A DNA stretch of 41,035 nt from a bacterium. GTDB lineage: Bacteria > Patescibacteriota > Minisyncoccia > UBA6257 > JACOXY01. Numbering within the stretch: position 1 is the first letter of the stretch; each line of letters opens with the position of its first letter. A program made the translations under genes and the position numbers. The notes below the pieces were generated by a model. That model worked only from the letters and a program-made list of their open reading frames with translations, did no database searches and was not told the DNA's origin. Location of the stretch: contig JAUXUB010000016.1 of assembly GCA_030680955.1 (NCBI GenBank), forward strand, positions 1 to 41,035, in the 5' to 3' direction. Of the stretch, positions 755 to 40,282 are shown in pieces.

Positions 755-873
755 CCCGTTAGAGATAGGACGCAGACGCGGTAAGCATCTTGCATACTAT
801 ATTGTTATTTAATAATTCCGACTTTTTTATGTAAATCATATATTTTGTTATGCGTCCGCGATCTCTAACGGGA
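754..873. mobile_element. MITE-like element, CCCGTTAGA-TIR family, copy 1a
   Basis: TIRs are TCCCGTTAGAGATAGGACGCAGACGCG and GCGTCCGCGATCTCTAACGGGA, with an AT-rich core. Direct TTCA lies at 750-753 and 874-877. The first base is the A of the virB4-like ATG. Confidence 0.8.
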
Positions 874-877
874 TTCA

Positions 878-1100
878 TCCCGTTAGAGATAGTTCCCGTT
901 AGAAATTTTACCCACCGACACAATAGGTAAATAAATATACTTAACTTTTTTTAATATCTTAAACATATTTTTATATTTTCAAATTTCTAACGGGATAGAT
1001 CGTGTATGTCACTAACACGATATCTTTATATTTATTAATTATAATTTTTGTAATACTTAACCCGTTAAAAAATCCACAGCGACCGCGATCTCTAACGGGA
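878..1100. mobile_element. MITE-like element, same family, copy 1b, in tandem with 1a and carrying a nested element
   Basis: Starts TCCCGTTAGAGATAG and ends CGCGATCTCTAACGGGA. TTCA lies at 874-877 and 1101-1104. Confidence 0.75.
895..994. mobile_element. 100-bp inner element (short CCCGTTAGAAATTT TIRs) nested in copy 1b
   Basis: Ends are CCCGTTAGAAATTTTACCCACCGACA and CAAATTTCTAACGGG, with ATAG on both sides. It is homologous to 38572-38671. Confidence 0.65.
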
Positions 1101-1190
1101 TTCATGATAATAATTTAATTCATTAATATTTTTCGACTATGTGGTTATTATAACACCATATATAAAATTGTTCCTATAGCGACTTATTGA

Positions 1191-1344
1191 CACCATCCTC
1201 AATTAACCCCTTCCTATAAGACTTTTGTCATTGCGAGGGCGAAGCCCGCGGCAATCCAAGAAATAATGAGATAAATCTGGATTGCTTCGTCGTTCCTCCT
1301 CGCAAAGACGAGATTAAAAGAGTAATGGTTAATTGGGGATGGTA
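1191..1344 (+). mobile_element. 154-bp multi-hairpin MITE, copy 1 (orientation A)
   Basis: CACCATCCTCAATTAACC...GTCATTGCGAGGGCGAAGCCCGCGGCAATCC...CTGGATTGCTTCGTCGTTCCTCCTCGCAAAGACGAG...GGTTAATTGGGGATGGTA. About 90 percent or more identical by eye to the three other copies. Confidence 0.85.
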
Positions 1345-1352
1345 TGATTAGC

Positions 1353-1380
1353 AAAAAAAGAGCTCAGTTTACGAGCTCTT
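1353..1380 (-). terminator. Rho-independent terminator of ORF 1369-1764
   Basis: The minus strand reads AAGAGCTC-GTAAACT-GAGCTCTT followed by TTTTTTT. The stem overlaps the stop codon. Confidence 0.7.
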
Positions 1381-1764
1381 ATCCCAATTTGCTATAAAAA
1401 CAATTTTAAAACGCTCAACGCTATAATTTTTTACTTCTTTGGTAATTCTATGTCCATAATTATGTAGGACACTTAGAATTTCGCTTATTAATCTATATTT
1501 TTTTGCCTTTTCTTCTGAAGTAATACAATTTGAATTAATTTTTAGCGAGTAGATGGGGGTAGAAAGTTGCTTCTTAAAAACTGCTTTCTGAATTTTGATT
1601 CGTATTCTATGAAGTTCTTTTTTAAGATTTCTTTTCAGCCATTCTGCCTTTCTTATTTTCGATTTCTCCTCTGTGGGCATAATAGCGTTAATTTTTGTCT
1701 TTTTTAAATTTGTTGCTGGTCTATCTACTAATTTAGACTTCACTGGTTTGTCTCCTCGCATCAA
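1369..1764 (-). CDS. Hypothetical highly basic protein (131 aa) bracketed by inverted copies of the 154-bp MITE
   Basis: The ORF has its own terminator. It is Lys/Arg-rich and I recognise no family. The start is TTG 1764 or ATG 1761. Confidence 0.5.
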   Translation of the reverse strand: MMRGDKPVKSKLVDRPATNLKKTKINAIMPTEEKSKIRKAEWLKRNLKKELHRIRIKIQKAVFKKQLSTPIYSLKINSNCITSEEKAKKYRLISEILSVLHNYGHRITKEVKNYSVERFKIVFIANWDKSS

Positions 1765-1810
1765 GTTCTTCCCAGTTTATAACATATATTTTATCGTTTA
1801 GCAAATATAA

Positions 1811-1964
1811 TACCATCCCCAATTAACCACTACTCTTTTAACCTCGTCTTTGCGAGGAGGAACGACGAAGCAATCCAGATTTATCCCGTTAATTTCTGGA
1901 TTGCCGCGGGCTTCGCCCTCGCAATGACAGAAGTCTTATAGGAAGTGGTTAATTGAGGATGGTA
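1811..1964 (-). mobile_element. 154-bp multi-hairpin MITE, copy 2 (orientation B)
   Basis: Reverse complement of the copy 1/3 consensus: TACCATCCCCAATTAACC...GGTTAATTGAGGATGGTA. TA is present at both ends. Confidence 0.85.
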
Positions 1965-1968
1965 TAAT
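1960..1968 (+). promoter_or_regulatory. Extended -10 box TGGTATAAT formed at the MITE copy 2 right junction, upstream of valS
   Basis: GGATGG|TA|TAAT matches the TGnTATAAT consensus, 55 nt before the valS GTG start. The same 9-mer occurs at 4366, 5344 and 12023. Confidence 0.5.
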
Positions 1969-2023
1969 TTTAAATATAAATTAAATACTTGATAAAATGC
2001 TCGCGGAATGGAATGATTAGTAA

Positions 2024-4216
2024 GTGCTAAAGGAATTGCCATCGGAGTACAATCCAAAAGAATACGAAGAAAAGATGTACAAACTCTGGGAAGACAGTGG
2101 TTTTTTTAATCCAGACAATTTACCTAAAGTTTCAAAACAAAAAAACTTTAGTATCATAATGCCGCCACCTAATGCAAATGGAGCGCTCCATATGGGGCAT
2201 GCGCTTTTTGTAACTTTACAAGACATAATGATTCGATATAAAAGAATGCAGGGATATAAAACACTATGGCTTCCAGGGGCAGATCATGCCGGTTTTGAAA
2301 CTCAAGTTGTTTACCAAAAGAAACTAGAAAAAGAAGGACGGTCTTTTTGGGAAGTGCCAAAAGATAAACTTTACGAGGAAATTTTAGCTTTTACACTAGA
2401 GAATAAAAAACATATGGAAAGCCAGCTTAGGCAACTTGGTGCTTCCTGTGATTGGGGAAGAGAGAAATTCACGCTAGACGATGATATTAAAAAAATAGTT
2501 TATGAAACATTTAAAAAACTTTATGATGACAATTTAGTATATAAAGCGGAGCGCCCTGTAAATTGGTGTACCAGACACCAAACAACCTTATCTGATTTAG
2601 AAATAAAGCACGAGGAGCGAAAAGATAAATTATTTTATGTTCGTTACAAATTTGAAAATTCTGAAGATTATATAGTTGTTGCTACAACAAGACCAGAAAC
2701 AATTCCGGCAGATATTGCGATCGCTGTAAACCCAAAATCAAAATGGAATAAATATGTTGGTAAGAAAGTTTTAAATCCACTTACTCAAGAGGCAATCTTG
2801 ATTATTAGCGATAAGCGCGTAGAAATTTCATTCGGAACTGGTGCGCTTAAAATAACGCCATATCACGACGCGTTAGACTTTGAAATATATAAGGATCATC
2901 CCGAACTACCAGCTTCAAAAAGTGTTATTAATAAATTTGGAGCAATAGAAAATTCTGGGACTAAACTTGATGGATTAAAAATATTGCCAGCAAGAGAAAA
3001 GTCTATAGAAATTTTAAAATTTTCACTAGACAAAGAACCAGAAGATTATGTTCACCAAGTTAGTATTTGCTACAAGTGCAATACTTTAATTGAACCAAGA
3101 ATAATGAATCAGTGGTTTATTAAGACCACCGAAAAATCAAAAACTGGTAGTAAATCTCTAAGAGACCTCGCGATAGATGCAGTAAAGACAAAAAAAGTAA
3201 AATTTGTAACAAAGAAGTTTGAAAAGATTTTCATGCATTGGATGAAGAATCTACGAGATTGGAATATATCTAGGCAAATTGTATGGGGTATTAAAATTCC
3301 AGCTTGGTATCATGAACCAATATGCATACCAAAAAAAGGCCACGAAGGTGATGTGGTGAAATGTAATGAAATTATAATTTCGATGGATGAACCAATATGC
3401 GAGTTTTGCGATGCAAAATTTATACAAGAGTCTGATGTTTTTGATACTTGGTTTTCTTCAGGTCAATGGCCATTCGCATCACTAATGTCCACTCATAATA
3501 AAAATGATTTTAAAGATTTTTATCCAACTGATGTGATGGAAACTGGATGGGATATTTTATTCTTTTGGATAGCAAGAATGATAATGTTGGGAACATACAA
3601 AACAGGTAAAGTGCCTTTCAAAACTGTTTACCTTCATGGGTTGGTTCGCGACAAAGACCGACAAAAAATGTCTAAATCTAAGGGCAATGTTATTGACCCT
3701 CTTGGTGTAGCAGATATTTATGGTGCAGATGCCATAAGAATGTCGCTTGTTGTTGGAACTGCTCCAGGAAATGACCCCGTTATTTCTGAAGATAAAATAC
3801 GCGGTTATAGGAATTTTGCAACAAAAATTTGGAATGCTACAAGACTAATAACAATGCGTGGGTCAAGCACGATTCCAGAAAAACCTAATTATACGAACGA
3901 AGATAAAAAAACACTAAAAGAATTTGAAAAATTCAAAAAAACAGTTATTAAAGATATGGATGCCTATCGCTTTCACGAAGCTTCAAATAAAATTTATCAT
4001 TATTTCTGGCATACTTTTGCCGACAAAATTCTTGAATCATCAAAAGCGCGCTTGCAAGATGAAAATAAAAAAGTTAAAGAAACCGCAACGGCATTTCTCA
4101 TTAAACTCTTAACAGAGCAATTAAAGCTTCTACATCCATTTATGCCTTTTGTAACAGAAGCTATTTGGCAAGAATTATATGGTGGAAAGAAAATATTAAT
4201 GGTGGAAAAATTGTGA
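2024..4216 (+). CDS. valS: Valine--tRNA ligase
   Basis: Class I motifs are present: PPPNANGALHMGH (HIGH) and KMSKSKGN (KMSKS). A CP1 editing region and an anticodon-binding domain are also present. GTG start, TGA stop. At 730 aa there is no C-terminal coiled-coil extension. Confidence 0.95.
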   Translation: MLKELPSEYNPKEYEEKMYKLWEDSGFFNPDNLPKVSKQKNFSIIMPPPNANGALHMGHALFVTLQDIMIRYKRMQGYKTLWLPGADHAGFETQVVYQKKLEKEGRSFWEVPKDKLYEEILAFTLENKKHMESQLRQLGASCDWGREKFTLDDDIKKIVYETFKKLYDDNLVYKAERPVNWCTRHQTTLSDLEIKHEERKDKLFYVRYKFENSEDYIVVATTRPETIPADIAIAVNPKSKWNKYVGKKVLNPLTQEAILIISDKRVEISFGTGALKITPYHDALDFEIYKDHPELPASKSVINKFGAIENSGTKLDGLKILPAREKSIEILKFSLDKEPEDYVHQVSICYKCNTLIEPRIMNQWFIKTTEKSKTGSKSLRDLAIDAVKTKKVKFVTKKFEKIFMHWMKNLRDWNISRQIVWGIKIPAWYHEPICIPKKGHEGDVVKCNEIIISMDEPICEFCDAKFIQESDVFDTWFSSGQWPFASLMSTHNKNDFKDFYPTDVMETGWDILFFWIARMIMLGTYKTGKVPFKTVYLHGLVRDKDRQKMSKSKGNVIDPLGVADIYGADAIRMSLVVGTAPGNDPVISEDKIRGYRNFATKIWNATRLITMRGSSTIPEKPNYTNEDKKTLKEFEKFKKTVIKDMDAYRFHEASNKIYHYFWHTFADKILESSKARLQDENKKVKETATAFLIKLLTEQLKLLHPFMPFVTEAIWQELYGGKKILMVEKL

Positions 4217-4370
4217 TACCATCCTCAATTAACCACTTCCTATAAGATTTTTGTCATTGCGAGGGCGAAGCCCGCGGCAATCTAGAAAAAAACGGGATAA
4301 ATCTGGATTGCTTCGTCGTTCCTCCTCGCAAAGACGAAGTTAAAAGAATAGTGGTTAATTGGGGATGGTA
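4217..4370 (+). mobile_element. 154-bp multi-hairpin MITE, copy 3 (orientation A)
   Basis: It begins immediately after the valS TGA and has TA at both ends. Confidence 0.85.
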
Positions 4371-4374
4371 TAAT
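4366..4374 (+). promoter_or_regulatory. TGGTATAAT at the MITE copy 3 right junction, facing the prsW-like gene
   Basis: Same junction sequence as at 1960 and 12023. It lies about 210 nt upstream of ATG 4585. Confidence 0.35.
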
Positions 4375-4446
4375 TTTAAGTGAAAATATTATTACAAATA
4401 AAAATAAGGAGAATAGACCTTTTGCACAATTATATTCGTAACGAGA

Positions 4447-4542
4447 TTTTCAAATTTGAGGCGAAGCGAAGTGAAAATTTTGAAGCATATACAAGAGTAT
4501 ATGTTGATAAATTTTCACAAAGTCGTAGCCCAAATTTGGAAA
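4447..4542. repeat. Long imperfect palindrome in the prsW-like leader
   Basis: The inner hairpin is perfect: GTGAAAATTT (4471-4480) / AAATTTTCAC (4509-4518), enclosing CATATAC/GTATATG. The outer arms are TTTTCAAATTTGAGG / CCCAAATTTGGAAA. Confidence 0.45.
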
Positions 4543-4584
4543 TTATAGTAGAATATAATTGTACATAAGGTCTAAAATAAAGAA

Positions 4585-5328
4585 ATGGCATTTATACTTT
4601 TACTCTTTGGTTTGCTTCCCGGTTTTGTTTGGCTAATTTTTTATATTGAAGAAGATACAGACTCCGAACCAAAAAAGGAGATCCTCTTAGCATTTATCGC
4701 AGGATTTGCAATTACTATCGTAGTTCTATTTGTTCAAACTGCTTTTGCTTTTATTGCGTCTTATGTACATATTGCCGATTATTCCTTGTTGTCATTTCTA
4801 GGGCTCGCGGCTATAGAAGAATTCTTTAAATTTGCGGCGGCCTATCTTGTAGTATCAAGAAGTAAGTATTTTGATATACCAATAGACGCTATGATTTATA
4901 TGATAGTTGTGGCACTTGGATTTGCAACACTAGAGAATATTTTTGCAATAAGAGGAGAATTTAATAATACTGCCCTGCTATCGACGGCGGCAGAGACGGC
5001 CACCTTGCGATTCGTTGGTGCAACACTTCTACATACTTTATCTTCTGCCATAGTTGGTTATTACTGGGCAAAAGCAATATTGCATGGCAGATTTTTATAC
5101 AACATTTCAATAGGATTAGTTATTGCCACCATTTTACATACCTCATTTAATTGCCTTATTTCATCCGGGTGCACAAGTTTTTCGCGTGAATCCCCTATTA
5201 CATACACAGTTCTCCTGCTTATTTTTGCTGGTTTCTTTGTGCTAAATGATTTTGAAAAACTCAAACACCCAGAAAAAAATACTGCGCCATTTTTTAAGAA
5301 AAGAGAAAAAGCGGAACAGGTTGCGTAA
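4585..5328 (+). CDS. PrsW-family intramembrane protease (multi-pass membrane protein)
   Basis: Several TM segments plus AAIEEFFKFAA (EExxK-like), GFATLENI and HTLSSAIVG motifs, as in PrsW/CPBP-type proteases. Confidence 0.65.
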   Translation: MAFILLLFGLLPGFVWLIFYIEEDTDSEPKKEILLAFIAGFAITIVVLFVQTAFAFIASYVHIADYSLLSFLGLAAIEEFFKFAAAYLVVSRSKYFDIPIDAMIYMIVVALGFATLENIFAIRGEFNNTALLSTAAETATLRFVGATLLHTLSSAIVGYYWAKAILHGRFLYNISIGLVIATILHTSFNCLISSGCTSFSRESPITYTVLLLIFAGFFVLNDFEKLKHPEKNTAPFFKKREKAEQVA

Positions 5329-5343
5329 TTTATATATGAGTTG

Positions 5344-5352
5344 TGGTATAAT
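5344..5352 (+). promoter_or_regulatory. Extended -10 promoter element TGGTATAAT upstream of hsp20
   Basis: GTTGTGGTATAATAAATG. It implies a leader of about 115 nt before ATG 5474. Confidence 0.5.
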
Positions 5353-5473
5353 AAATGTAATATTAAATACTGCTAATTGAATCTCGAATTACAATCTCGA
5401 ATAATCTCAAATTAGAAATTCATATTTGAGAAAATTAGCGATAACTATTAGAGAATAAATTAGCGATAAAACA

Positions 5474-5941
5474 ATGGATGATGAAACAAAAAAATTCTTT
5501 GGAGAATTATCTCACGAGATGAATAGTGACGAGCCAGAAGTAGAACTTGCGCGTTCCAGCAGTTCGGCTATTTCAAGACGTGCCACTGCTAAAGACATTG
5601 CCGCAGAAGCCGAAGGACAACTAACGATAGATGTTCACCAAACACCAACGCATATTATAGTAGAATCAACAATTGCTGGCGTTAAAGAAGATGATTTAGA
5701 TATTGAGATTACATCCGAATCGGTAACAATTCGCGGATCCCGCGAACACGAAGAAGAAGTTGATGACAGTGATTATATTTATCAAGAATGTTTTTGGGGG
5801 CGTTTCTCTAGGTCAATTATATTGCCACAAGAGATTGATCCAGACAGAACTGAAGCAACTTTAAAAAATGGTGTATTGAAAATTAAACTTCCCAAAGTTA
5901 ATAAGGAACGAAGCAAGAAGGTAAAAGTGAGTTTTGTGTAA
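5474..5941 (+). CDS. Hsp20/alpha-crystallin family small heat shock protein
   Basis: Alpha-crystallin domain: ...VESTIAGVKEDDLDIEITSESVTIRGSRE...FSRSIILPQEIDPDRTEATLKNGVLKIKLPK. Confidence 0.9.
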   Translation: MDDETKKFFGELSHEMNSDEPEVELARSSSSAISRRATAKDIAAEAEGQLTIDVHQTPTHIIVESTIAGVKEDDLDIEITSESVTIRGSREHEEEVDDSDYIYQECFWGRFSRSIILPQEIDPDRTEATLKNGVLKIKLPKVNKERSKKVKVSFV

Positions 5942-5975
5942 TATATTAGGCCTTTTCCATAATTAAAAATGAAAA

Positions 5976-6004
5976 TCCCCGATTAAGTTCGGGGAATTTT
6001 TATT
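5976..6004 (+). terminator. Rho-independent terminator after hsp20
   Basis: TCCCCGA-TTAAGT-TCGGGGA followed by ATTTTTATTT. Confidence 0.75.
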
Positions 6005-6039
6005 TACAAAATAGATAATTATTCTTTTTATAAATACTC

Positions 6040-6327
6040 TTAATCTATTAGGGTTTTATCTTTAACTGCGTCTAAGTTGTAATCGACACATTTATAACAA
6101 ATAGAGCCAGGGTATATTAACTCACTTCTACATTTATTGCAAAAATATATATCATTATAAATCTTTATGTGATCGGTAGAGCAACAAGGGTTAAATTCCT
6201 CCCTTAGGTCTCCATCACCTACCAATATAAAAATTCTACAATTTGGAATTTTGCAGTGATAATGTGGTAGTTTATAGTTGCAATTAGTAGCAATGCAATC
6301 GTATCCAAGCACTTGTTTTACTTTCAA
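6040..6327 (-). CDS. Cys-rich small protein (several CxxC pairs, probable zinc-ribbon protein)
   Basis: 95 aa containing CIATNC, CKIPNC, CNKC and CYKC. No family recognised. Confidence 0.45.
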   Translation of the reverse strand: MKVKQVLGYDCIATNCNYKLPHYHCKIPNCRIFILVGDGDLREEFNPCCSTDHIKIYNDIYFCNKCRSELIYPGSICYKCVDYNLDAVKDKTLID

Positions 6328-6457
6328 AATAACCTCCTTTTTCTTATAAATTACTAGGGCTATTATAACAGATTTTTTAAATATAACAAGTTTCTAAATG
6401 AATAATCGTTAAGCCTTTACTGTCAAGCAGTGAGCAAATATTAGACCTTATGTGATT

Positions 6458-6493
6458 AAAAAAATAAAAATCCCCTACCAATTAAGGTGGGGG
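6458..6493 (-). terminator. Rho-independent terminator of the SGNH hydrolase gene
   Basis: The minus strand reads CCCCCACC-TTAATT-GGTAGGGG followed by ATTTTTATTTTTT. Confidence 0.65.
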
Positions 6494-6524
6494 TATCTAA
6501 AAGTCTATTATTAAGGAGTTTAGA

Positions 6525-8183
6525 TTAGTCTAGTTTTTGTGCTTTGATTGCTTTGGTAACAGCATTCGCTATTGCGGTCTGTCCTTTTAGAGTTGGGTGC
6601 GGCATACAATTTACAAAATATTTAAAACTGTATATATCGTTATCCTTATTTCCTTTTTCAATCATTGGCGTGCTGTCAATCTCATGTGGAAAAGCGCAAT
6701 ATCCTGGCAAAGCATTTTTGTATTCATATTTAATAGTAAGAACTAAAGTTCTTAAAAAAGTAATATCTGCATCTATCGATGGTCCATAAACAAAAGACTT
6801 CGATTTTTGACATAAGTCGTGACCATTGAAATCTAGTGGGACTACGTGGACATTAGGATAAAATTCTGCCGCGTCTTTGATAGTACCATTTAATTTTTGA
6901 ATCACTCTATTTGCAAATGAATAAGTATTAGTCTGGAAGTACGATGACATCAATTTAAGATCTGATTCCAAAGGGATTCGTCCATTTTGAAGAAAAATTG
7001 CATTTGCGGCGATAGGATAATAAAATTCCTTACACAATTTATCCGTATCCCTTGGAAATGGATTGTAATAAAGCGTAACAAATACATCTGCCGGATACAA
7101 AAAGCCAAAAATGATATTTAGATTTTCTTTTAGAAGCGCTAGTCTTTCATTGAGTTTAGGATTATCTGGCCAACAAGGATTAGCTAATGGATTGTCAAGA
7201 AAATCACTATTTAGCCATTTCTCCATGCATTCTCCAAAATTAATATCATTTGCACCAACGGTGAGAGTAACAATTTTGGGAAAACTCTCATATGCGTCTA
7301 AAAGTTGATTTTCTATAACAGAATGACAAGAGTTATCAGTTGAGCTCCAATCACCATGCATACAAGTGTTTTGGCAATCGGGAGTCCAATTTTCTGCACA
7401 GTTTTGCTCACAATGACGCTTACAATTACCAGAGATTGATCCGCTTATTGCAAAATTCATACCAAAATATTTTTTACTTTTACCCCAACCAAGAGCAACT
7501 TGTCTGCCATAGGAACTATTATTGCCATCTGGACCATGCCCATAACCAGCCGCAATAGAATCTCCAACATTAACAATACGAGACTCTCTAATAACGCCAA
7601 TCAACTCAGCAGTTTGATACCGATATTCTAAAACAGTTAATTTATTGATTATTTTTGGTATTCCATAGTCACCAATAACCTGAAATCCAAGAACCTCAAA
7701 AACATAAGTTCTACCATTTAATTTTATTTTACTTTTTGGTGTTTCGCTAGGAAATACAACAGAATCCGCATTGTATTCAGGATTACTATATCTATTTGGT
7801 GTTGTAATAATAGTAAATTTTTCTTTAAAATTTCCAATATATGCTAAAGGTAAAATTAGCTCAACTCCAATATTAAACTGAACACTATCAGCTTGCTTTG
7901 CACCTTCTCCATTATAGTAATACAGGGTCCCCATCGAAAAAGGCACGTTAATATCAGCTTCAATTAATTTATTGTTTGTAAAAGAAAGATAACTTGGAAA
8001 TCCTCCTGGTACCGCATTACCCCATTTGAAAAGACTTGTTCCCACTCCACTAACGACAGCATTGGATGGTGTTGGTTTAGTAAAGCTTACTGATACTTTT
8101 CCTTGAATGGTCGAGGCTTCTAACGGTCTGAAACCTACAAGAACTAGTGAAATCGCAACCAAATAAATTCCAGATTTCTTCAT
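6525..8183 (-). CDS. Secreted SGNH/GDSL-type hydrolase with N-terminal beta-rich domain and a Cys-rich insert
   Basis: Signal peptide MKKSGIYLVAISLVLVGF. Block I is VNVGDSIAAGYG and block III is LTVGANDI. A Cys-rich stretch reads NCKRHCEQNCAENWTPDCQNTCMHG. Confidence 0.6.
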   Translation of the reverse strand: MKKSGIYLVAISLVLVGFRPLEASTIQGKVSVSFTKPTPSNAVVSGVGTSLFKWGNAVPGGFPSYLSFTNNKLIEADINVPFSMGTLYYYNGEGAKQADSVQFNIGVELILPLAYIGNFKEKFTIITTPNRYSNPEYNADSVVFPSETPKSKIKLNGRTYVFEVLGFQVIGDYGIPKIINKLTVLEYRYQTAELIGVIRESRIVNVGDSIAAGYGHGPDGNNSSYGRQVALGWGKSKKYFGMNFAISGSISGNCKRHCEQNCAENWTPDCQNTCMHGDWSSTDNSCHSVIENQLLDAYESFPKIVTLTVGANDINFGECMEKWLNSDFLDNPLANPCWPDNPKLNERLALLKENLNIIFGFLYPADVFVTLYYNPFPRDTDKLCKEFYYPIAANAIFLQNGRIPLESDLKLMSSYFQTNTYSFANRVIQKLNGTIKDAAEFYPNVHVVPLDFNGHDLCQKSKSFVYGPSIDADITFLRTLVLTIKYEYKNALPGYCAFPHEIDSTPMIEKGNKDNDIYSFKYFVNCMPHPTLKGQTAIANAVTKAIKAQKLD

Positions 8184-24617: not shown

Positions 24618-25850
24618 TTATAATATTTTCCCGCGTAACTTCCTATGATAAGAGATTGCAAATCTATGAGCTTCGTCACGAACACGAATTAGAATATTTT
24701 TATCTGTATCTCTTGGAATTACTCCAATAAACTCGTTTTTCTTTCGCTCTGGTCCTTTTGCAATTCCCACTACTGGAATTTCTATACCAAATTCTGAAAT
24801 AACTTCTCTTACTGCATTTACTTGTGACTTGCCTCCATCAATTAGAAATAAATTTGGAAATGGCCATTCAAAATGCTTTAGGCGCCTATTTAAAACTTCT
24901 TTCAACATACCTACATCGTTTGCTCCCGTAATAGTACGTATTTTAAATTTTTTATATTCATTTTTTGCTGGCTTATTTTTTATAAAAACCACCATACTAC
25001 CCACCGCAGAAGTGCCACTAATATTTGAAATGTCATAACCTTCTATGCGAGTATCTAGTTGATAGTTTATAGTTGATAGTTCGGATTCTCTAATTAGGGC
25101 AATATCGTTTATGTGCTGTAAGGCAAACAATTGTCGTTTCTTCTTTTCTGCTAATTCAAATTCCTGTAGCAGTGCCGCATCGCGCATTTCTTTTTCAAGC
25201 ACTTCTATAAGATGACGTTTTTTGCCATTAAAAATTAATTTAATATTTCTAATTGTTTTTACATATTCGTTAACTGATATTGCAGAAGCGCAAACTCCGG
25301 GACAGAGCCCTATTTGCCAATTGAAGCAGGGCCTAGATTCCTTTCTTAAAAACTTATCAATTTCTTCTTTGGTATGAGTATTAAATGGAAATATTTTTCT
25401 AATTAACCGTAGCGCTTCTTTTAAACTTCCTGCCTCTACAAATGGCCCATATCTTTCTATAGAACCTTTTGCATTTACTATTTCATCTTTTTTAATATCC
25501 TTACCACGAACCAAAAGAACTCTTGGAAATTCATCTTTTGTTATCTCAACAAACAAAAAGCTTTTATCATCTTTTTCGCGAACATTGTAAGGAGGCTTAT
25601 ATTTTTTAATTAATTGAGATTCCAATATTAAAGCTTCAAGAGATGTGTCAGTTTGTTTAACATCTATTTTTTTTATTTCACTAACCATCTTTTGAAGCCT
25701 ATATTCTAATGGGCGCAAAAAATAACTTGAAACGCGTCTCTTTAAATTACCTGCCTTACCAATATAGAGAATCGCGCCTTTAGTTCCACGCATAAAATAA
25801 ACACCAGGAGTTTCAGGTAAATTTTCATAAAGTTTTTTTGGATTTGACAT
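24618..25850 (-). CDS. uvrC: Excinuclease ABC subunit C, short form (410 aa, no C-terminal HhH2 region)
   Basis: GIY-YIG N-terminus (PGVYFMRG...ILYIGKAGNLKRRV), UVR motif (FELAEKKKRQL), nuclease domain ending DEAHRFAISYHRKLR. The start is moved to ATG 25850; the track's 42 extra codons have no homology. Confidence 0.85.
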   Translation of the reverse strand: MSNPKKLYENLPETPGVYFMRGTKGAILYIGKAGNLKRRVSSYFLRPLEYRLQKMVSEIKKIDVKQTDTSLEALILESQLIKKYKPPYNVREKDDKSFLFVEITKDEFPRVLLVRGKDIKKDEIVNAKGSIERYGPFVEAGSLKEALRLIRKIFPFNTHTKEEIDKFLRKESRPCFNWQIGLCPGVCASAISVNEYVKTIRNIKLIFNGKKRHLIEVLEKEMRDAALLQEFELAEKKKRQLFALQHINDIALIRESELSTINYQLDTRIEGYDISNISGTSAVGSMVVFIKNKPAKNEYKKFKIRTITGANDVGMLKEVLNRRLKHFEWPFPNLFLIDGGKSQVNAVREVISEFGIEIPVVGIAKGPERKKNEFIGVIPRDTDKNILIRVRDEAHRFAISYHRKLRGKIL

Positions 25851-25908
25851 AGGTACAATATATAGTAATATATTGCCAGTATCAATATTAAATTGAAATG
25901 GGGGCGAT

Positions 25909-26142
25909 ATGGCACTACCGAGAAAAGGCGACGTTGTTTGGGCTACTAATTTTAATGTTTTGGGTATTGTAGACAATTATAATAAGAAGAGGGAAACTCT
26001 CTTAATGCAGTCCTGCTTCTATAAACCCCACGGAAAATTTCTTTATTATGATGAACTACTTGATCCAGTAAAAGCTGAGGACATTAAAATTCCTACAACA
26101 AAAGAAGTTTTTGAAATGCTGGCTGAGCTAATAAGTAATTAA
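25909..26142 (+). CDS. Hypothetical small protein (77 aa), weak paralog of ORF 30441-30728
   Basis: Divergent from uvrC, with a terminator at 26222-26249. Shares the KGD[IV]V and IK[IV]..[ST].KEVF..L motifs. Confidence 0.45.
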   Translation: MALPRKGDVVWATNFNVLGIVDNYNKKRETLLMQSCFYKPHGKFLYYDELLDPVKAEDIKIPTTKEVFEMLAELISN

Positions 26143-26221
26143 CTAAGAAGTACTCTTGATTCTATCGCAAATGAAATCTCAAGTATAACAAAGAAACATT
26201 ACTTGGATTATACACGCACCG

Positions 26222-26249
26222 AAAGCGACTAACTTGTCGCTTTTTTTAT
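26222..26249 (+). terminator. Rho-independent terminator
   Basis: AAAGCGAC-TAACTT-GTCGCTTT followed by TTTTT. Confidence 0.7.
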
Positions 26250-26267: not shown

Positions 26268-27017
26268 TATTTACGTCATCGCAAGACGTAAATATTATTC
26301 CAACACTAACTTTTTAATACTATCCAAATCTAAATTTTGAAGCCAAGATTTTATACTTTTTTTATATCCATCCGGTCCATCAAAAAATTCAGATAATAAC
26401 TCTCTTTGGGTAACTGAGGGGAAATTTTTCTCCCCAGAGTAATCACGATGACTCGACCAGCGATAGCTATCTAAAAATTCAATTGCTTTCCTATAATTCG
26501 TCAATTTGCGATCTCGCCATTCCTTAAATTTAAAATCTAATGGATTGAAATGAATATAGTATGGAAGGTGAATAAAATGTGCGTCGTTCTTAACCGGAAC
26601 AGATTTAAATCTCCCCTCAAACAAAGTTCCGACTCTTTCGTATTTATTGTTAAAATACTTGGCATATCCCATATTAACTTTTTTCATAAACAATGAGATA
26701 CTACCCTCGTGACGAGGAGAAATAAGAAGGTGATAGTGATTATCCATCAAACAAAAAACGTGTAGATCAACCAATAACTTTCTTGGCTTCTTTTCATTGG
26801 GTTCAAATTTACGTCTTGCGATGACGTTAAATTGATAATAAGTGCTATTCGCTGGTTCTTGATTATTAAATTCAAATAAGTCGTGAATGAAGCGGTAGCG
26901 ATCCTCATCATCCATAAATATTTTTCTTTTATCTACTCCTCTACTTAAAACGTGATATATTTCACTCATAATGTAATATATAATATCCCAATATTTACGT
27001 CATCGCAAGACGTTAAT
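26268..27017 (-). mobile_element. IS200/RAYT-like unit: Y1 (HUH) transposase gene bracketed by two copies of one hairpin
   Basis: The hairpin TATTTACGTC-ATCGCAA-GACGTAAATA at 26268-26294 is repeated in the same orientation at 26993-27017 with one stem mismatch. The surrounding roughly 35 bp are also repeated. Confidence 0.65.
26295..26969 (-). CDS. REP-associated tyrosine transposase (RAYT) / IS200-like Y1 HUH transposase
   Basis: HUH motif MDNHYHLL, then YIHFNP and RWSSH, as in COG1943/RAYT proteins. 224 aa. Confidence 0.75.
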   Translation of the reverse strand: MSEIYHVLSRGVDKRKIFMDDEDRYRFIHDLFEFNNQEPANSTYYQFNVIARRKFEPNEKKPRKLLVDLHVFCLMDNHYHLLISPRHEGSISLFMKKVNMGYAKYFNNKYERVGTLFEGRFKSVPVKNDAHFIHLPYYIHFNPLDFKFKEWRDRKLTNYRKAIEFLDSYRWSSHRDYSGEKNFPSVTQRELLSEFFDGPDGYKKSIKSWLQNLDLDSIKKLVLE

Positions 27018-27018
27018 A

Positions 27019-29556
27019 TTATTTTAATATTTTTCTAAGATATTCACCTGTTGCACTTCCTGCACATCGTGCAACATCTTCTGGAGTTCCTTGCGCAATA
27101 ATCTTTCCGCCCTTAACTCCACCTTCTGGGCCTAAGTCAATTACCCAATCGGCACATTTTATAACATCTAAATTATGCTCAATAACAATTATTGAATTTC
27201 CCTTTTCAACAAGTTTTTGCAAAACATCCATTAAGTTTTGGATGTCGGCAAAGTGAAGGCCTGTAGTTGGCTCGTCTAACAAATATAGTGTCCGTCTTGT
27301 ATCGGGCTTTCCTAATTCAGAAGAAAGTTTAATTCTTTGAGCCTCGCCACCAGATAAGGTCGTCGCAGATTGTCCTAATTGCAAATATTCCAAACCAACA
27401 TCACCCATTATTTTTAAACGCTCATAAAGCCAAGGAATATCCCTAAAAAATACTATAGCTTCTTCTACTGTCATCTTAAGTATGTCGTGTATATTTTTAT
27501 CCTTGTATTCCACCGCTAGCGTTTCACGATCAAAACGTTTGCCTTTGCAAACATCACACTCAACATAAACTGTTGGTAAAAAGTGCATTTCAATTGCTAT
27601 AGTTCCGTGTCCTTCACAGTTCTCACAACGCCCTCCTGGAACATTAAAACTAAATCGCCCAGGTTTATAACCTCGAACTCGCGCATCTTCGGTCGAAGCA
27701 AAAAGTTCCCTGATATAAGTCCATGCACCTACATACGTTGCCGGATTAGATCTTGGAGTTCTTCCTATGGCAGATTGGTCAATATTAATTATTCTATTAA
27801 AATACTCCAAACCCAATATTGAGTTAACTCCATCTACTTTGAAGCTTGATCTATTTAGTTTATTAGAAACATATTTATAAATAACGTCATAAACCAAAGA
27901 ACTTTTACCAGAACCCGAAACTCCAGTAACAGCCACTAACCTACGAAGTGGAATGTCTACATTTATATTTTGAAGATTGTTAGTTGAGGCACCGCGAATT
28001 TTTAGATAATCATGTTGCTTCGTGATACTTCTTCGCTTCTCTGGAATAGGAATAGTAACTTTTCCACGCAAATAATCTAATGTTAGCGATTTATACTTAT
28101 CTTTATCCTTAATTATTTGAGGCATAGGACCTTCTGCTACTATATGTCCGCCGTGGACTCCAGCACCTGGTCCGATATCAACAAGATAATCTGCGGTTCT
28201 AATAGTATCTTCGTCGTGCTCAACAATAATTATAGTATTACCAATATCTCGTAAATTTTTTAGTGTTTCAATAAGTTTTGCATTATCTCTCTGGTGCAAC
28301 CCAATTGTCGGCTCGTCTAATATATATAAAGTTCCTACAAGCCGTGAGCCAATTTGTGAGGCAAGCCGAATACGCTGGGCTTCTCCACCTGACAAGGTTC
28401 CAGCCATTCTGTTTAGTGTTAAATATTCTAATCCTACGTCAAACATAAATTGAAGACGACTTCTAACCTCACGAAGCGGCACTTCGGCAATACTTAATTT
28501 AGTCTCATCAAGTGATTTTTGAACATCGGTTATCCATTGTTTTGATTCACTAATAGACATTGCCACAACTCCTGCAATATTTTTCCCCTCAACTAAAACA
28601 CTTAAAGCTTCGCGTCTTAGACGCTTTCCATCGCATACTGGACAAACTTTCTCAGAAAAAAGAGATTCTGTCCCGAGTCCGTTACAAGCCGTACACGCTC
28701 CATAGGGACTATTGAACGAGAATAATCTTGGCTCTATTTCTAAAAATGCAAAACCATCTCGGGCGCAAGTAAATTTTGCTGAAAATGAATGCTCATCATT
28801 GCCGTCTGCAATTACGGTAACAACATCATTTCCATATTTAAGAGCTGACTCAATTGCCTCTGCAAGACGAAGTCGATTATCTTTTCCATCCTTAATAGAA
28901 AAATCTAGCATTTGAGGGATTCGATCTACTAACAATTCTATTGTATGAGCCTTATAACGAGAAAGTTCGATTCTATTTCTAAGTGATTTAAATTCTCCAT
29001 CTATTCTAATCTCAGAAAAACCTGCATTTAAAAAATTATAAAGCATCTGATAATATTCCCCTTTTCTACCACGTACTACAGGTGCCAAAATTAAAATATT
29101 TTTGTCTGTTTTTGCTTTTTTAAACAATCGTATGACAGCATCCACTATCTCTTCTTTTGTAAGTTTCTTTATCTCGTGACCACAATCTGGACAGTGCGGT
29201 ACACCTGAGCGCGCAAAGAGCACACGAAGATAATCATAGATTTCTGTAATGGTTGCAACTGTTGAACGAGGATTATGTGAATGACTTTTCTGGTCAATTG
29301 AAATGGCTGGCGAAAGACCTTCAATCTCATCCACGTCTGGCTTATCTAATTTACCTAAAAACTGACGCGCATAAGCAGAAAGAGACTCAATGTAACGTCT
29401 TTGCCCTTCCGCAAAAATGGTATCAAACGCTAAGCTAGACTTACCCGAACCGGAAAGCCCAGTAAATACTATCATTTTATTTCGAGGTAATCTCAAAGAT
29501 ATATTTTTAAGATTATGCTCTCTTGCTCCTTTTATTGTAATAAAGTCTTGTGCCAT
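27019..29556 (-). CDS. uvrA: Excinuclease ABC subunit A (845 aa, lacks the insertion domain)
   Basis: Two ABC modules (GLSGSGKSS, GVSGSGKSS, two LSGGEAQR) and zinc modules. Only 9 residues separate CTACNGLG and CPVCDGKRL. Confidence 0.95.
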   Translation of the reverse strand: MAQDFITIKGAREHNLKNISLRLPRNKMIVFTGLSGSGKSSLAFDTIFAEGQRRYIESLSAYARQFLGKLDKPDVDEIEGLSPAISIDQKSHSHNPRSTVATITEIYDYLRVLFARSGVPHCPDCGHEIKKLTKEEIVDAVIRLFKKAKTDKNILILAPVVRGRKGEYYQMLYNFLNAGFSEIRIDGEFKSLRNRIELSRYKAHTIELLVDRIPQMLDFSIKDGKDNRLRLAEAIESALKYGNDVVTVIADGNDEHSFSAKFTCARDGFAFLEIEPRLFSFNSPYGACTACNGLGTESLFSEKVCPVCDGKRLRREALSVLVEGKNIAGVVAMSISESKQWITDVQKSLDETKLSIAEVPLREVRSRLQFMFDVGLEYLTLNRMAGTLSGGEAQRIRLASQIGSRLVGTLYILDEPTIGLHQRDNAKLIETLKNLRDIGNTIIIVEHDEDTIRTADYLVDIGPGAGVHGGHIVAEGPMPQIIKDKDKYKSLTLDYLRGKVTIPIPEKRRSITKQHDYLKIRGASTNNLQNINVDIPLRRLVAVTGVSGSGKSSLVYDVIYKYVSNKLNRSSFKVDGVNSILGLEYFNRIINIDQSAIGRTPRSNPATYVGAWTYIRELFASTEDARVRGYKPGRFSFNVPGGRCENCEGHGTIAIEMHFLPTVYVECDVCKGKRFDRETLAVEYKDKNIHDILKMTVEEAIVFFRDIPWLYERLKIMGDVGLEYLQLGQSATTLSGGEAQRIKLSSELGKPDTRRTLYLLDEPTTGLHFADIQNLMDVLQKLVEKGNSIIVIEHNLDVIKCADWVIDLGPEGGVKGGKIIAQGTPEDVARCAGSATGEYLRKILK

Positions 29557-29641: not shown

Positions 29642-30391
29642 TTATTTTATTCCCAGTATTACTATTACTTTTGCTTTTGATTCTATAATGTTATCTACCG
29701 CGTTATTTTTACAATATATGTTAAATTTGGCCAAAACTACTTCTTTTTGATTCTCTGGAACTAAATTGAGTAAACTCATAGTTTGTGCGTATTGATTGGC
29801 ATGATCAACTGTAAAACTTTCAACGGCATCAAATTCTCTGCTTTCGACTTTGCTAAATCCATTTCTTTCTAAAATTGCTTTTGCTTTATAATCATTTCTA
29901 AAATTCGGTAATTCACCAACAAAATTCGTAACAATACTTCGAAATTCAGTTTTTAATCCTTTTTGTTCTCTTTTGTTAGCCACAAAGTATATCGCGTTAG
30001 GTTTAAGAATTCTCTTAATTTCGTTAACAGAGGCATCGTCAACAAACCAATGGAACGCTGAAAATGAAGTTGCCGCATCAAAACTTTCATCTGCAAAAGG
30101 CAGGGCATTAGCGAGGGCAACTGTATATTCAATATCGCTAGAGACTTTTTTGGCTTCTTCTATCATTTTTGGATCTTTATCAATCCCTATAATTTTAGCC
30201 CCATCTCTTAAAATCTGCCTTGTTGGTATACCAGTTCCACAGCCTACATCTAAAATCAAAGGATTATTTACTTTAATATTTTCCCAAAAATATTTAATAA
30301 CTTCATCCGGATATCCAGTTCGATGCTTAGCATACTGCTTACTTAAATTTCCGAAATCGCCGTAGCCTGGTTTTGTTTTAATGTTTGACAT
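29642..30391 (-). CDS. Class I SAM-dependent methyltransferase
   Basis: Motif I LDVGCGTG, post-I IGIDKD, and a Methyltransf_11-like layout. Confidence 0.8.
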   Translation of the reverse strand: MSNIKTKPGYGDFGNLSKQYAKHRTGYPDEVIKYFWENIKVNNPLILDVGCGTGIPTRQILRDGAKIIGIDKDPKMIEEAKKVSSDIEYTVALANALPFADESFDAATSFSAFHWFVDDASVNEIKRILKPNAIYFVANKREQKGLKTEFRSIVTNFVGELPNFRNDYKAKAILERNGFSKVESREFDAVESFTVDHANQYAQTMSLLNLVPENQKEVVLAKFNIYCKNNAVDNIIESKAKVIVILGIK

Positions 30392-30440
30392 ATTCTTGTT
30401 ATGTTATATTATGACGACAGCAACAATCAAGGAGGTCGTT

Positions 30441-30728
30441 ATGAGTCTCAAGAAGGGTGATATTGTTTCCGTTAAATATATGCGAAGAGGAATGAATGAA
30501 GCATGCATAGGAAAATACAATAGATACGATAGGAAAACACATAAATTATATCTTGGATCAGCATTTGATGTTGGGGACAAAATATTTACTTCCCAAAGAG
30601 TATTTGATGAAATAGAGAAAATCGATATTAAAGTCCTGTCCGCTAAAGAGGTATTTCATAAACTTCGTGCAAATCAAAGGCAAGTTGAAAGAGTGACCCA
30701 CATGCAGTTCCGAATGTGGGGTTTATAG
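30441..30728 (+). CDS. Hypothetical small protein (95 aa)
   Basis: The start is set at ATG 30441, preceded by AAGGAGG. A terminator follows. Confidence 0.5.
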   Translation: MSLKKGDIVSVKYMRRGMNEACIGKYNRYDRKTHKLYLGSAFDVGDKIFTSQRVFDEIEKIDIKVLSAKEVFHKLRANQRQVERVTHMQFRMWGL

Positions 30729-40211: not shown

Positions 40212-40282
40212 GTCTTTGCGAGGGTTATCCCGAAGCAATCTATTTTGATTAGACTAGTTTGCTTCGCTCTGCTCGCAAAGAC
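40212..40282. repeat. Hairpin related to the internal motif of the 154-bp MITE
   Basis: GTCTTTGCGAG ... GAAGCAA ... TTGCTTC ... CTCGCAAAGAC. Confidence 0.55.

Follow-up and report, generated by a model that had tools for sequence, protein, structure and literature searches.

The RAYT-like gene (RAYT, REP-associated tyrosine transposase) that lies between uvrC and uvrA in this DNA raises the question of what the hairpins around it are to its product: the ends of a mobile element, ordinary structures at gene borders, or the enzyme's own targets. The window, i.e. the whole 41,035-nucleotide stretch that was analysed, is on contig 15 of a 1.07-Mb assembly (G000; 36% G+C, 96% complete). A sequence-only reading had claimed a 224-aa protein of the HUH/RAYT type, a hairpin at its stop codon that recurs upstream of its start codon, and a repeated context of about 35 bp around both hairpins. 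All three observations were reproduced: the two flanking hairpins have the same orientation, differ by one mismatch, and have ~33 nt of surrounding sequence in common. The two-hairpin layout was nevertheless incomplete, in that a third copy inside the gene had been missed. The features, by coordinates and strand, are as follows.

26295..26969, minus strand: RAYT-like HUH/Y1 gene, 224 aa, intact (ORF list, Pfam, alignment, AF2 model and PDB fold match)
26268..26294, minus strand: downstream hairpin (D), 10-bp stem and 7-nt loop, abutting the TAA stop codon of the RAYT gene (exact core match and fold)
26990..27020, minus strand: upstream hairpin (U), same core and orientation as D, one stem mismatch (core match; fold z -4.6)
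26805..26833, minus strand: internal hairpin (V), AATTTAACGTCATCGCAAGACGTAAATTT, inverted relative to U and D, in frame in the RAYT coding sequence (core match and fold)
26980..27008, minus strand: weak promoter-like sequence TTGCGA-17-TATTAT (9/12 matches), the -35 hexamer of which is the loop of hairpin U

In the ORF translation, the HUH motif is formed by H78 and H80 in DNHYHLL and the catalytic tyrosine is Y138 in YYIHFNP; the motif YRWSSH is also present. A profile search, as the sequence-only reading had proposed, matched residues 66-140 to Pfam Y1_Tnp (PF01797) with 33.7 bits against a cut-off of 23. The score for the NCBIfam REP_Tyr_transpos equivalog (NF047646) was 32.8 bits, under the cut-off of 80, which marks the 224-aa protein, as judged from these profiles, as a distant relative and not an equivalog of the proteobacterial REP-associated tyrosine transposase. 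Homologues came nearly all from Patescibacteria/Parcubacteria MAGs, and in an alignment of 92 of them H78, H80, Y138, H140, N142, W171 and S172 were invariant. W171-S172 belong to a helical C-terminal tail of 80 residues, and no HTH profile match was found in the protein by the Pfam search. The sequence YIHFNP carries the Y---NP motif diagnostic of TnpA-Y1 class 2 (the RAYT branch), as opposed to the Y---Q of IS200 transposases (PMC6006769). An AF2 model built from the 92-sequence alignment had a pLDDT of 91.3, with low values at residues 41-60 and values below 50 at residues 48-53. When this model was compared with the PDB by Foldseek, the top match was 4er8_A, E. coli TnpA-REP with a bound REP hairpin (E 1.8e-5, TM (target) 0.65), followed by ISDra2 and then IS608 TnpA; searching the PDB by sequence matched ISDra2 alone, weakly (E 0.004). 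Taken together, the motifs, the Pfam match and the predicted fold support the assignment of the protein to the Y1/HUH enzymes of the RAYT kind.

The hairpin, 23 bases long, has the sequence TTTACGTC-ATCGCAA-GACGTAAA. The window contains three exact copies of its 17-nt core, ACGTCATCGCAAGACGT (at 26273 (+), 26997 (+) and 26811 (-)), against an expectation of zero from 100 shuffles. Folded as single-stranded DNA, hairpin D has a dG of -7.8 (z -5.5). Hairpin U stops 20-24 nt short of the RAYT ATG, and there is overlap between its outer arm and the stop codon of uvrA (27019-27021). Hairpin V encodes QFNVIARRKFE, of which FNVIARRKF corresponds to residues ~46-54, between helix A and the HUH strand; residues 48-53, for which pLDDT fell below 50, are exactly the peptide encoded by the internal hairpin, and this peptide is predicted by the model to be a disordered loop. 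A promoter role of hairpin U was kept as a hint only, the number of promoter-like sites in the region (11, compared with 6.0 +/- 2.5 in shuffles) not being clearly above expectation.

The sequence-only reading had also seen kinship between this hairpin, the third hairpin of a MITE and a hairpin at 40212-40282, and had proposed the enzyme as a candidate mobiliser or processor of at least part of the repeat load. This link was dropped. The best non-self match to the 23-mer in the window was 15/23, which is the chance level (~8.6 per shuffle). The string shared with the MITE and the 40212-40282 hairpin is a 10-mer, CGTCTT(T)GCGA, in a different structural position: there it is a stem arm (CCTCG-TCTTTG-CGAGG, or a long stem), but it spans stem and loop in the RAYT hairpin. 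With the MITE link unsupported, the enzyme is a candidate processor only of its own hairpin family.

The genome-wide census suggested by the same reading revealed that the hairpin is a dispersed repeat. There are seven exact copies of the ACGTCATCGCAAGACGT core in the 1.07-Mb genome, three at the RAYT gene, one between genes (contig C26), and three inside housekeeping ORFs, namely miaA (C14), an asnB-like gene (C20) and an iscS/nifS-like gene (C53). Moreover, the genome contains two further Y1 genes, on contigs C34 and C45, which are 52-59% identical to the window gene and each have a private palindrome at U, V (in frame and at the same protein position) and D. The hairpin of the C45 paralogue, CAATATTCGGACTTGCGAAGTCCGAATATTG, has ~10 genomic copies and that of the C34 paralogue, ATATATCGTAACCSGGTTACGATATAT, ~17. 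Thus, for all three paralogues, the flanking palindrome is dispersed in the same genome and specific to the paralogue (7, ~10 and ~17 copies). The three C45-linked hairpins share the compensatory stem pair CGGACT/AGTCCG, the dispersed copies having CGGGCT/AGCCCG; copies of the C45-type hairpin that had been taken as intragenic proved to be upstream of real start codons and were discarded as intragenic cases. As a separate observation, hairpin families with an AATATT arm and with no Y1 gene in the assembly also occur, e.g. ATCGAAGTCGGACTTCGAT at C10:15778, C17:7758, C26:8031 and C32:2758. Among the hairpins of RAYT genes elsewhere, the core of ATCGAAGTCGGACTTCGAT is the most frequent, and such families may be orphans of a lost or unassembled gene. 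The C45 paralogue (L105, C45:24450-25245) follows recG, its upstream hairpin abutting the recG stop codon. On its other side is a convergent 447-aa protein, the C-terminus of which looks by eye like a tail-fibre-like self-cleaving chaperone domain.

The gene neighborhood was also compared with that in relatives. uvrA (27019..29556, minus strand) is directly upstream of the RAYT gene and uvrC is downstream. The uvrC ORF is listed as 24618-25976 (minus strand) with a TTG start at 25976, ~42 codons ahead of the conserved MS(N/D)(P/S)KKLY start; its true start is probably near 25850, because the same-genus orthologue begins at the equivalent position. Two small ORFs without Pfam matches, 25909-26139 (+) and 30381-30725 (+), are weakly paralogous to each other (29% identity, E 8e-7). 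The former is convergent with the RAYT gene, and a terminator-like hairpin comes after it at 26221-26244. In a same-genus genome (G001), uvrA and uvrC are also neighbors, and their interval holds two unrelated small ORFs with no Y1 gene or hairpin; no family member was found in that genome at E <= 1e-10. Because the two unrelated ORFs occupy the site, the insertion boundaries are unreadable from it, so that the comparison of the interval in relatives, another suggestion of the earlier reading, gave an interval free of the unit but no junctions. Two other genomes (G002 and G003) had no uvrA-uvrC adjacency within the loci compared. One further RAYT gene, at locus L150 of a distant genome (CP011209.1, Wolfebacteria, 808-7942), is also located between uvrA and uvrC, and it groups with the paralogue of its own genome. 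No other of the ~100 family loci, bar the C45 copy after recG, has uvrA, uvrB, uvrC or recG within 1.5 kb. An association of RAYT genes with repair genes was considered and set aside as coincidence or an island effect, the ~100 family loci being mostly without such neighbors.

These data bear on whether the locus is an autonomous insertion sequence of the IS200/IS605 type. If so, U and D would mark its left and right termini, and all 750 bp would move together in single-stranded form. U and D are direct repeats here, as are the ends of IS608; the unit starts exactly after the uvrA stop codon and finishes at its own stop codon; the G001 interval is taken up by small, unrelated ORFs and lacks a RAYT gene; and the family is patchy, being present in 13/40 relatives and in 83/301 genomes sampled from the phylum, carriers having 1-8 copies. 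However, no second near-identical copy of the whole hairpin-gene-hairpin unit exists in the genome, the three Y1 genes being only 52-59% identical and having different hairpins, and hairpins occur solo, away from any Y1 gene. Moreover, the enzyme has Y---NP (class 2) rather than Y---Q and is 224 aa long rather than ~150, and among 55 related loci U and D are inverted in 33 and direct in 22, the relative orientation of U, V and D not being fixed. On balance, we regard an autonomous insertion sequence as very unlikely and infer that the gene is not one. Of the two options offered by the sequence-only reading, an IS200 unit or a domesticated RAYT with its REP, the second was upheld and the first was not, there being neither a near-identical copy nor Y---Q.

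The relationship between gene and hairpin was then viewed across the Patescibacterial family. The sample comprised 80 loci from one-genome-per-species contigs and 20 from relatives, the genes of which were redefined by tblastn and then aligned; sharing between U, D and the variable region was called at >=13 nt, in 83 distinct loci with both flanks. U and D share at least 13 nt in 66/83 loci, and the variable segment (from the EFN motif to the HUH-bearing strand) shares at least 13 nt with a flank in 58/83, whereas the remaining ~450 nt of coding sequence do so in only 6/83. The internal palindromes comprise 48 distinct 13-nt cores, and their center falls in one codon phase in 52/58 loci, a phase that is not forced by stop codons since most internal palindromes are open in 3-6 of 6 frames. 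Where U and D agree, the internal copy resembles them no less than U resembles D (median identity 1.0 over the central 21 nt), and it is >=0.9 identical to the flanks in 92% of loci, compared with 2.7% in a cross-locus control. Hence, the three gene-linked copies vary together across the family with their palindromes retained, and the position and codon phase of the internal copy are still conserved where identity within the family has fallen to about 45%. In most related loci, the start of the downstream hairpin is -6 to +4 nt from the stop codon. In a tree made without the variable columns, internal copies are found on both main branches. A well-supported clade of ten has a variable segment of 21-24 residues and has kept the flanking hairpins with no internal copy, which indicates that the internal copy is dispensable.

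The nearest relatives of the window gene keep the loop ATCGCAA and have different, complementary stems. Two paralogues of the complete Wolfebacteria genome CP011209, L031 and L150, have ~80% nucleotide identity once the variable segment is set aside. Even so, they do not share a hairpin: in either gene, the two ends carry a matching hairpin peculiar to that gene, to which in L150 the internal copy also conforms, and the variable segments are non-homologous. Hairpins at one gene are thus replaced as a set, with no base-by-base drift. Two RAYT genes only 57% identical to the window gene, L141 (Yanofskybacteria CAIUCV010000008.1, 6469-7224) and L153, match it exactly in the 17-nt core of U, V and D and in the internal peptide NVIARR, whereas the closest protein relative, L012 (66%), has different hairpin stems; hairpin type thus does not track the protein tree in any simple manner. 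A search for the exact core in 185,579 genomes gave 52 matches, near the random expectation, among which only Patescibacteria records with multiple hits are meaningful.

Copies of the hairpin inside housekeeping genes fell into two kinds. The copy in the asnB-like gene is a clean 30-nt (10-codon) insertion of the same 29-mer as V, as compared with two orthologues, and other hairpin families of this genome are likewise present as clear in-frame insertions, e.g. in glyA. The 25-nt hairpins in miaA (C14:13118-13142) and in the iscS/nifS-like gene (C53:9156-9180) are also in frame and leave protein length unchanged. For miaA, the segment has the same length in 21 orthologues (38-64% identical), and the hairpin peptide IYVIARRKLVP mimics the family consensus I.EII.RGK.P found just ahead of PIICGGTG, with which it is colinear. 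In miaA and the iscS-like gene, an equal-length segment was apparently replaced, rather than length added; a metagenome scan for a near-identical strain bearing on these two events found none, the best identity being 58%. Further in-frame elements were noted in passing: the asnB-like gene (C20:2671-4686) holds three different palindromic elements, of which one is the 30-nt insertion (3956) and the other two are double hairpins (3283 and 3660), and hairpins of the GAAGTCSGACTTC type are in frame in fpg (C17), glyA (C26, two sites) and murC (C44).

Such copies could also be read in another manner, namely that the hairpins are ordinary REP-like RNA or DNA structures, for instance terminators or protectors of mRNA 3' ends at stop codons, which general recombination keeps similar, that V is a neutral passenger in a loop that tolerates it, and that the enzyme has its real substrate or role elsewhere. 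REP ends are known to provide stop codons, and REPs to occur within ORFs, those of repair genes among them (PMC3733652), and the stop codons of RAYT and uvrA are precisely where D and U, respectively, are located. In addition, the internal peptide is disordered in the AF2 model, one clade does without the internal copy, and fpg, glyA, murC and asnB carry in-frame hairpins while some hairpin families have no RAYT partner. Against these points, each paralogue has its private hairpin at all three positions, and the internal copy, with its position and codon phase conserved at ~45% identity, has decayed no more than the flanks. The repeats, at 25-30 nt, are also at or below the usual length for RecA-type homogenisation, and the closest structural relative of the enzyme, TnpA-REP, is itself a nuclease of REP hairpins. 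We therefore judge this reading unlikely.

The reading that we favor, and consider probable, is that the unit is REPtron-like, that is, a gene for a RAYT-class (TnpA-Y1 class 2) HUH single-stranded DNA nuclease together with its own cognate REP-like hairpin. Given that the U/V/D layout recurs with a different hairpin in most of ~90 related genes, the comparison points to the hairpin as the enzyme's own target. The most likely mechanism, as far as the sequences suggest, would be a hairpin-specific single-strand nuclease/ligase that spreads and rewrites a small hairpin family. TnpA-REP is known to bind and cleave folded single-stranded REPs; where the REP is a perfect palindrome, positions in the loop are essential (PMC8266576). 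By analogy with the E. coli TnpA-REP, the enzyme would bind the folded hairpin on single-stranded DNA and would cut and rejoin it at the hairpin foot. Its activity would give rise to copied hairpin units at new sites, some of them in frame within genes, and would rewrite existing copies so that U, V and D stay identical. The enzyme would probably also limit its own expression or the integrity of its own gene, because its putative targets cover the promoter-like region, the interior of the reading frame, and the stop codon.

Several points speak against this REPtron-like reading: the miss of NF047646, the lack of a GT[AG]G foot, the small number of copies (seven), and motifs like those of subclass 2.1. 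The variable orientation of U, V and D would likewise be awkward for a strictly strand-specific reaction. Passive homogenisation with no regulatory role could also produce the co-variation of the internal copy, which one clade does without, and the overlap of hairpin U with a promoter has no statistical backing. A bolder extension, which we hold to be unlikely, is that beyond inserting hairpins the enzyme, or a process dependent on it, overwrites short patches of DNA in place with the hairpin. Overwriting of this kind would account for the identity of U, V and D during turnover of the hairpin sequence; for paralogues that are ~80% identical and have different, internally matched hairpins and a non-homologous variable region; and for the length-neutral copies in miaA and the iscS-like gene, which would represent a templated rewrite at sites that already resembled the hairpin.

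How RAYT enzymes copy REP hairpins is still unsettled, and only a few proteobacterial pairs have been assayed. Dozens of natural pairs of enzyme and hairpin are available from the Patescibacterial family; their palindromes are small and perfect and mark the gene three times over, so that specificity determinants and the cleavage site are directly testable with short oligonucleotides. Moreover, conservation of the in-frame copy suggests that a domesticated transposase here targets or limits itself, and the system connects to the many in-frame palindromes in housekeeping proteins of reduced genomes, two of which apparently replace coding sequence. REPs inside tnpA-REP genes are already known, but for a different subclass (2.4) and at a different position.

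REPtrons, i.e. tnpA-REP genes flanked by their own REPs with a separate REP family for each paralogue, are well described (PMC6006769); our literature search found no paper that links them to Patescibacteria, the host phylum here. The unit shares with the REPtrons of E. coli (yafM, PDB 4ER8), Pseudomonas and Stenotrophomonas (PMC3333891, PMC8266576, PMC3116915) the HUH/Y1 fold and Y---NP, a palindrome on both sides of the gene that is also scattered over the genome, a separate hairpin family for each paralogue, and low identity among the gene copies in one genome. It differs at the stem foot: canonical REPs are recognized by a 5' GT[AG]G tetranucleotide there (PMC6006769, PMC3733652), whereas the feet here are A/T-rich (ATTT / AATATT), with no GTAG or GTGG and with an outer arm of the AATATT type. 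The 7 copies found in a 96%-complete genome, and the 7-17 of the three families, fall short of the tens to hundreds usual for REPs, and the hairpins are mostly solo, not REPIN/BIME pairs. The helical C-terminal tail of 80 residues and the conserved in-frame internal copy are further differences.

Within the TnpA-Y1 family, REPs in frame within tnpA-REP genes have been reported for subclass 2.4 by Quentin et al. 2018 (PMC6006769). The window gene resembles that subclass in having its cognate palindrome within the coding sequence, where it leaves the frame intact and maps to the periphery of the fold. However, the copy here precedes the HUH strand (in the loop from helix A to strand 2), keeps one conserved position and codon phase, and belongs to short, non-GTAG hairpins. 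This upstream location and the motifs NHYH, FE-GR and YIHFNP place the protein outside subclass 2.4. The motifs instead resemble those of TnpA-Y1 subclass 2.1, or Bertels RAYT group 1 (NH[YF]H, FQ/FE-GR, Y[IV]HLNP, ~238 aa, and a conserved SS in the tail). Subclass 2.1 is reported to lack REPs, and an HTH (DnaA_C-like) tail or long terminal inverted repeats are often present; the window gene has clear REP-like hairpins and no HTH match, and the likeness is one of motifs only. With IS200/IS605 elements (IS608, ISDra2), the unit shares the catalytic fold and hairpins beside both ends of the gene, but those elements have Y---Q enzymes of ~150 aa and are present as multiple identical copies, whereas the window has a single divergent copy with Y---NP, 224 aa and dispersed solo hairpins. 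Finally, the copies in housekeeping genes are like Rickettsia palindromic elements and intragenic REPs (PMC3733652), which are short in-frame palindromes in housekeeping genes, including DNA-repair genes; unlike the Rickettsia elements, they are accompanied here by a candidate cognate enzyme, and two of the three leave protein length unchanged.
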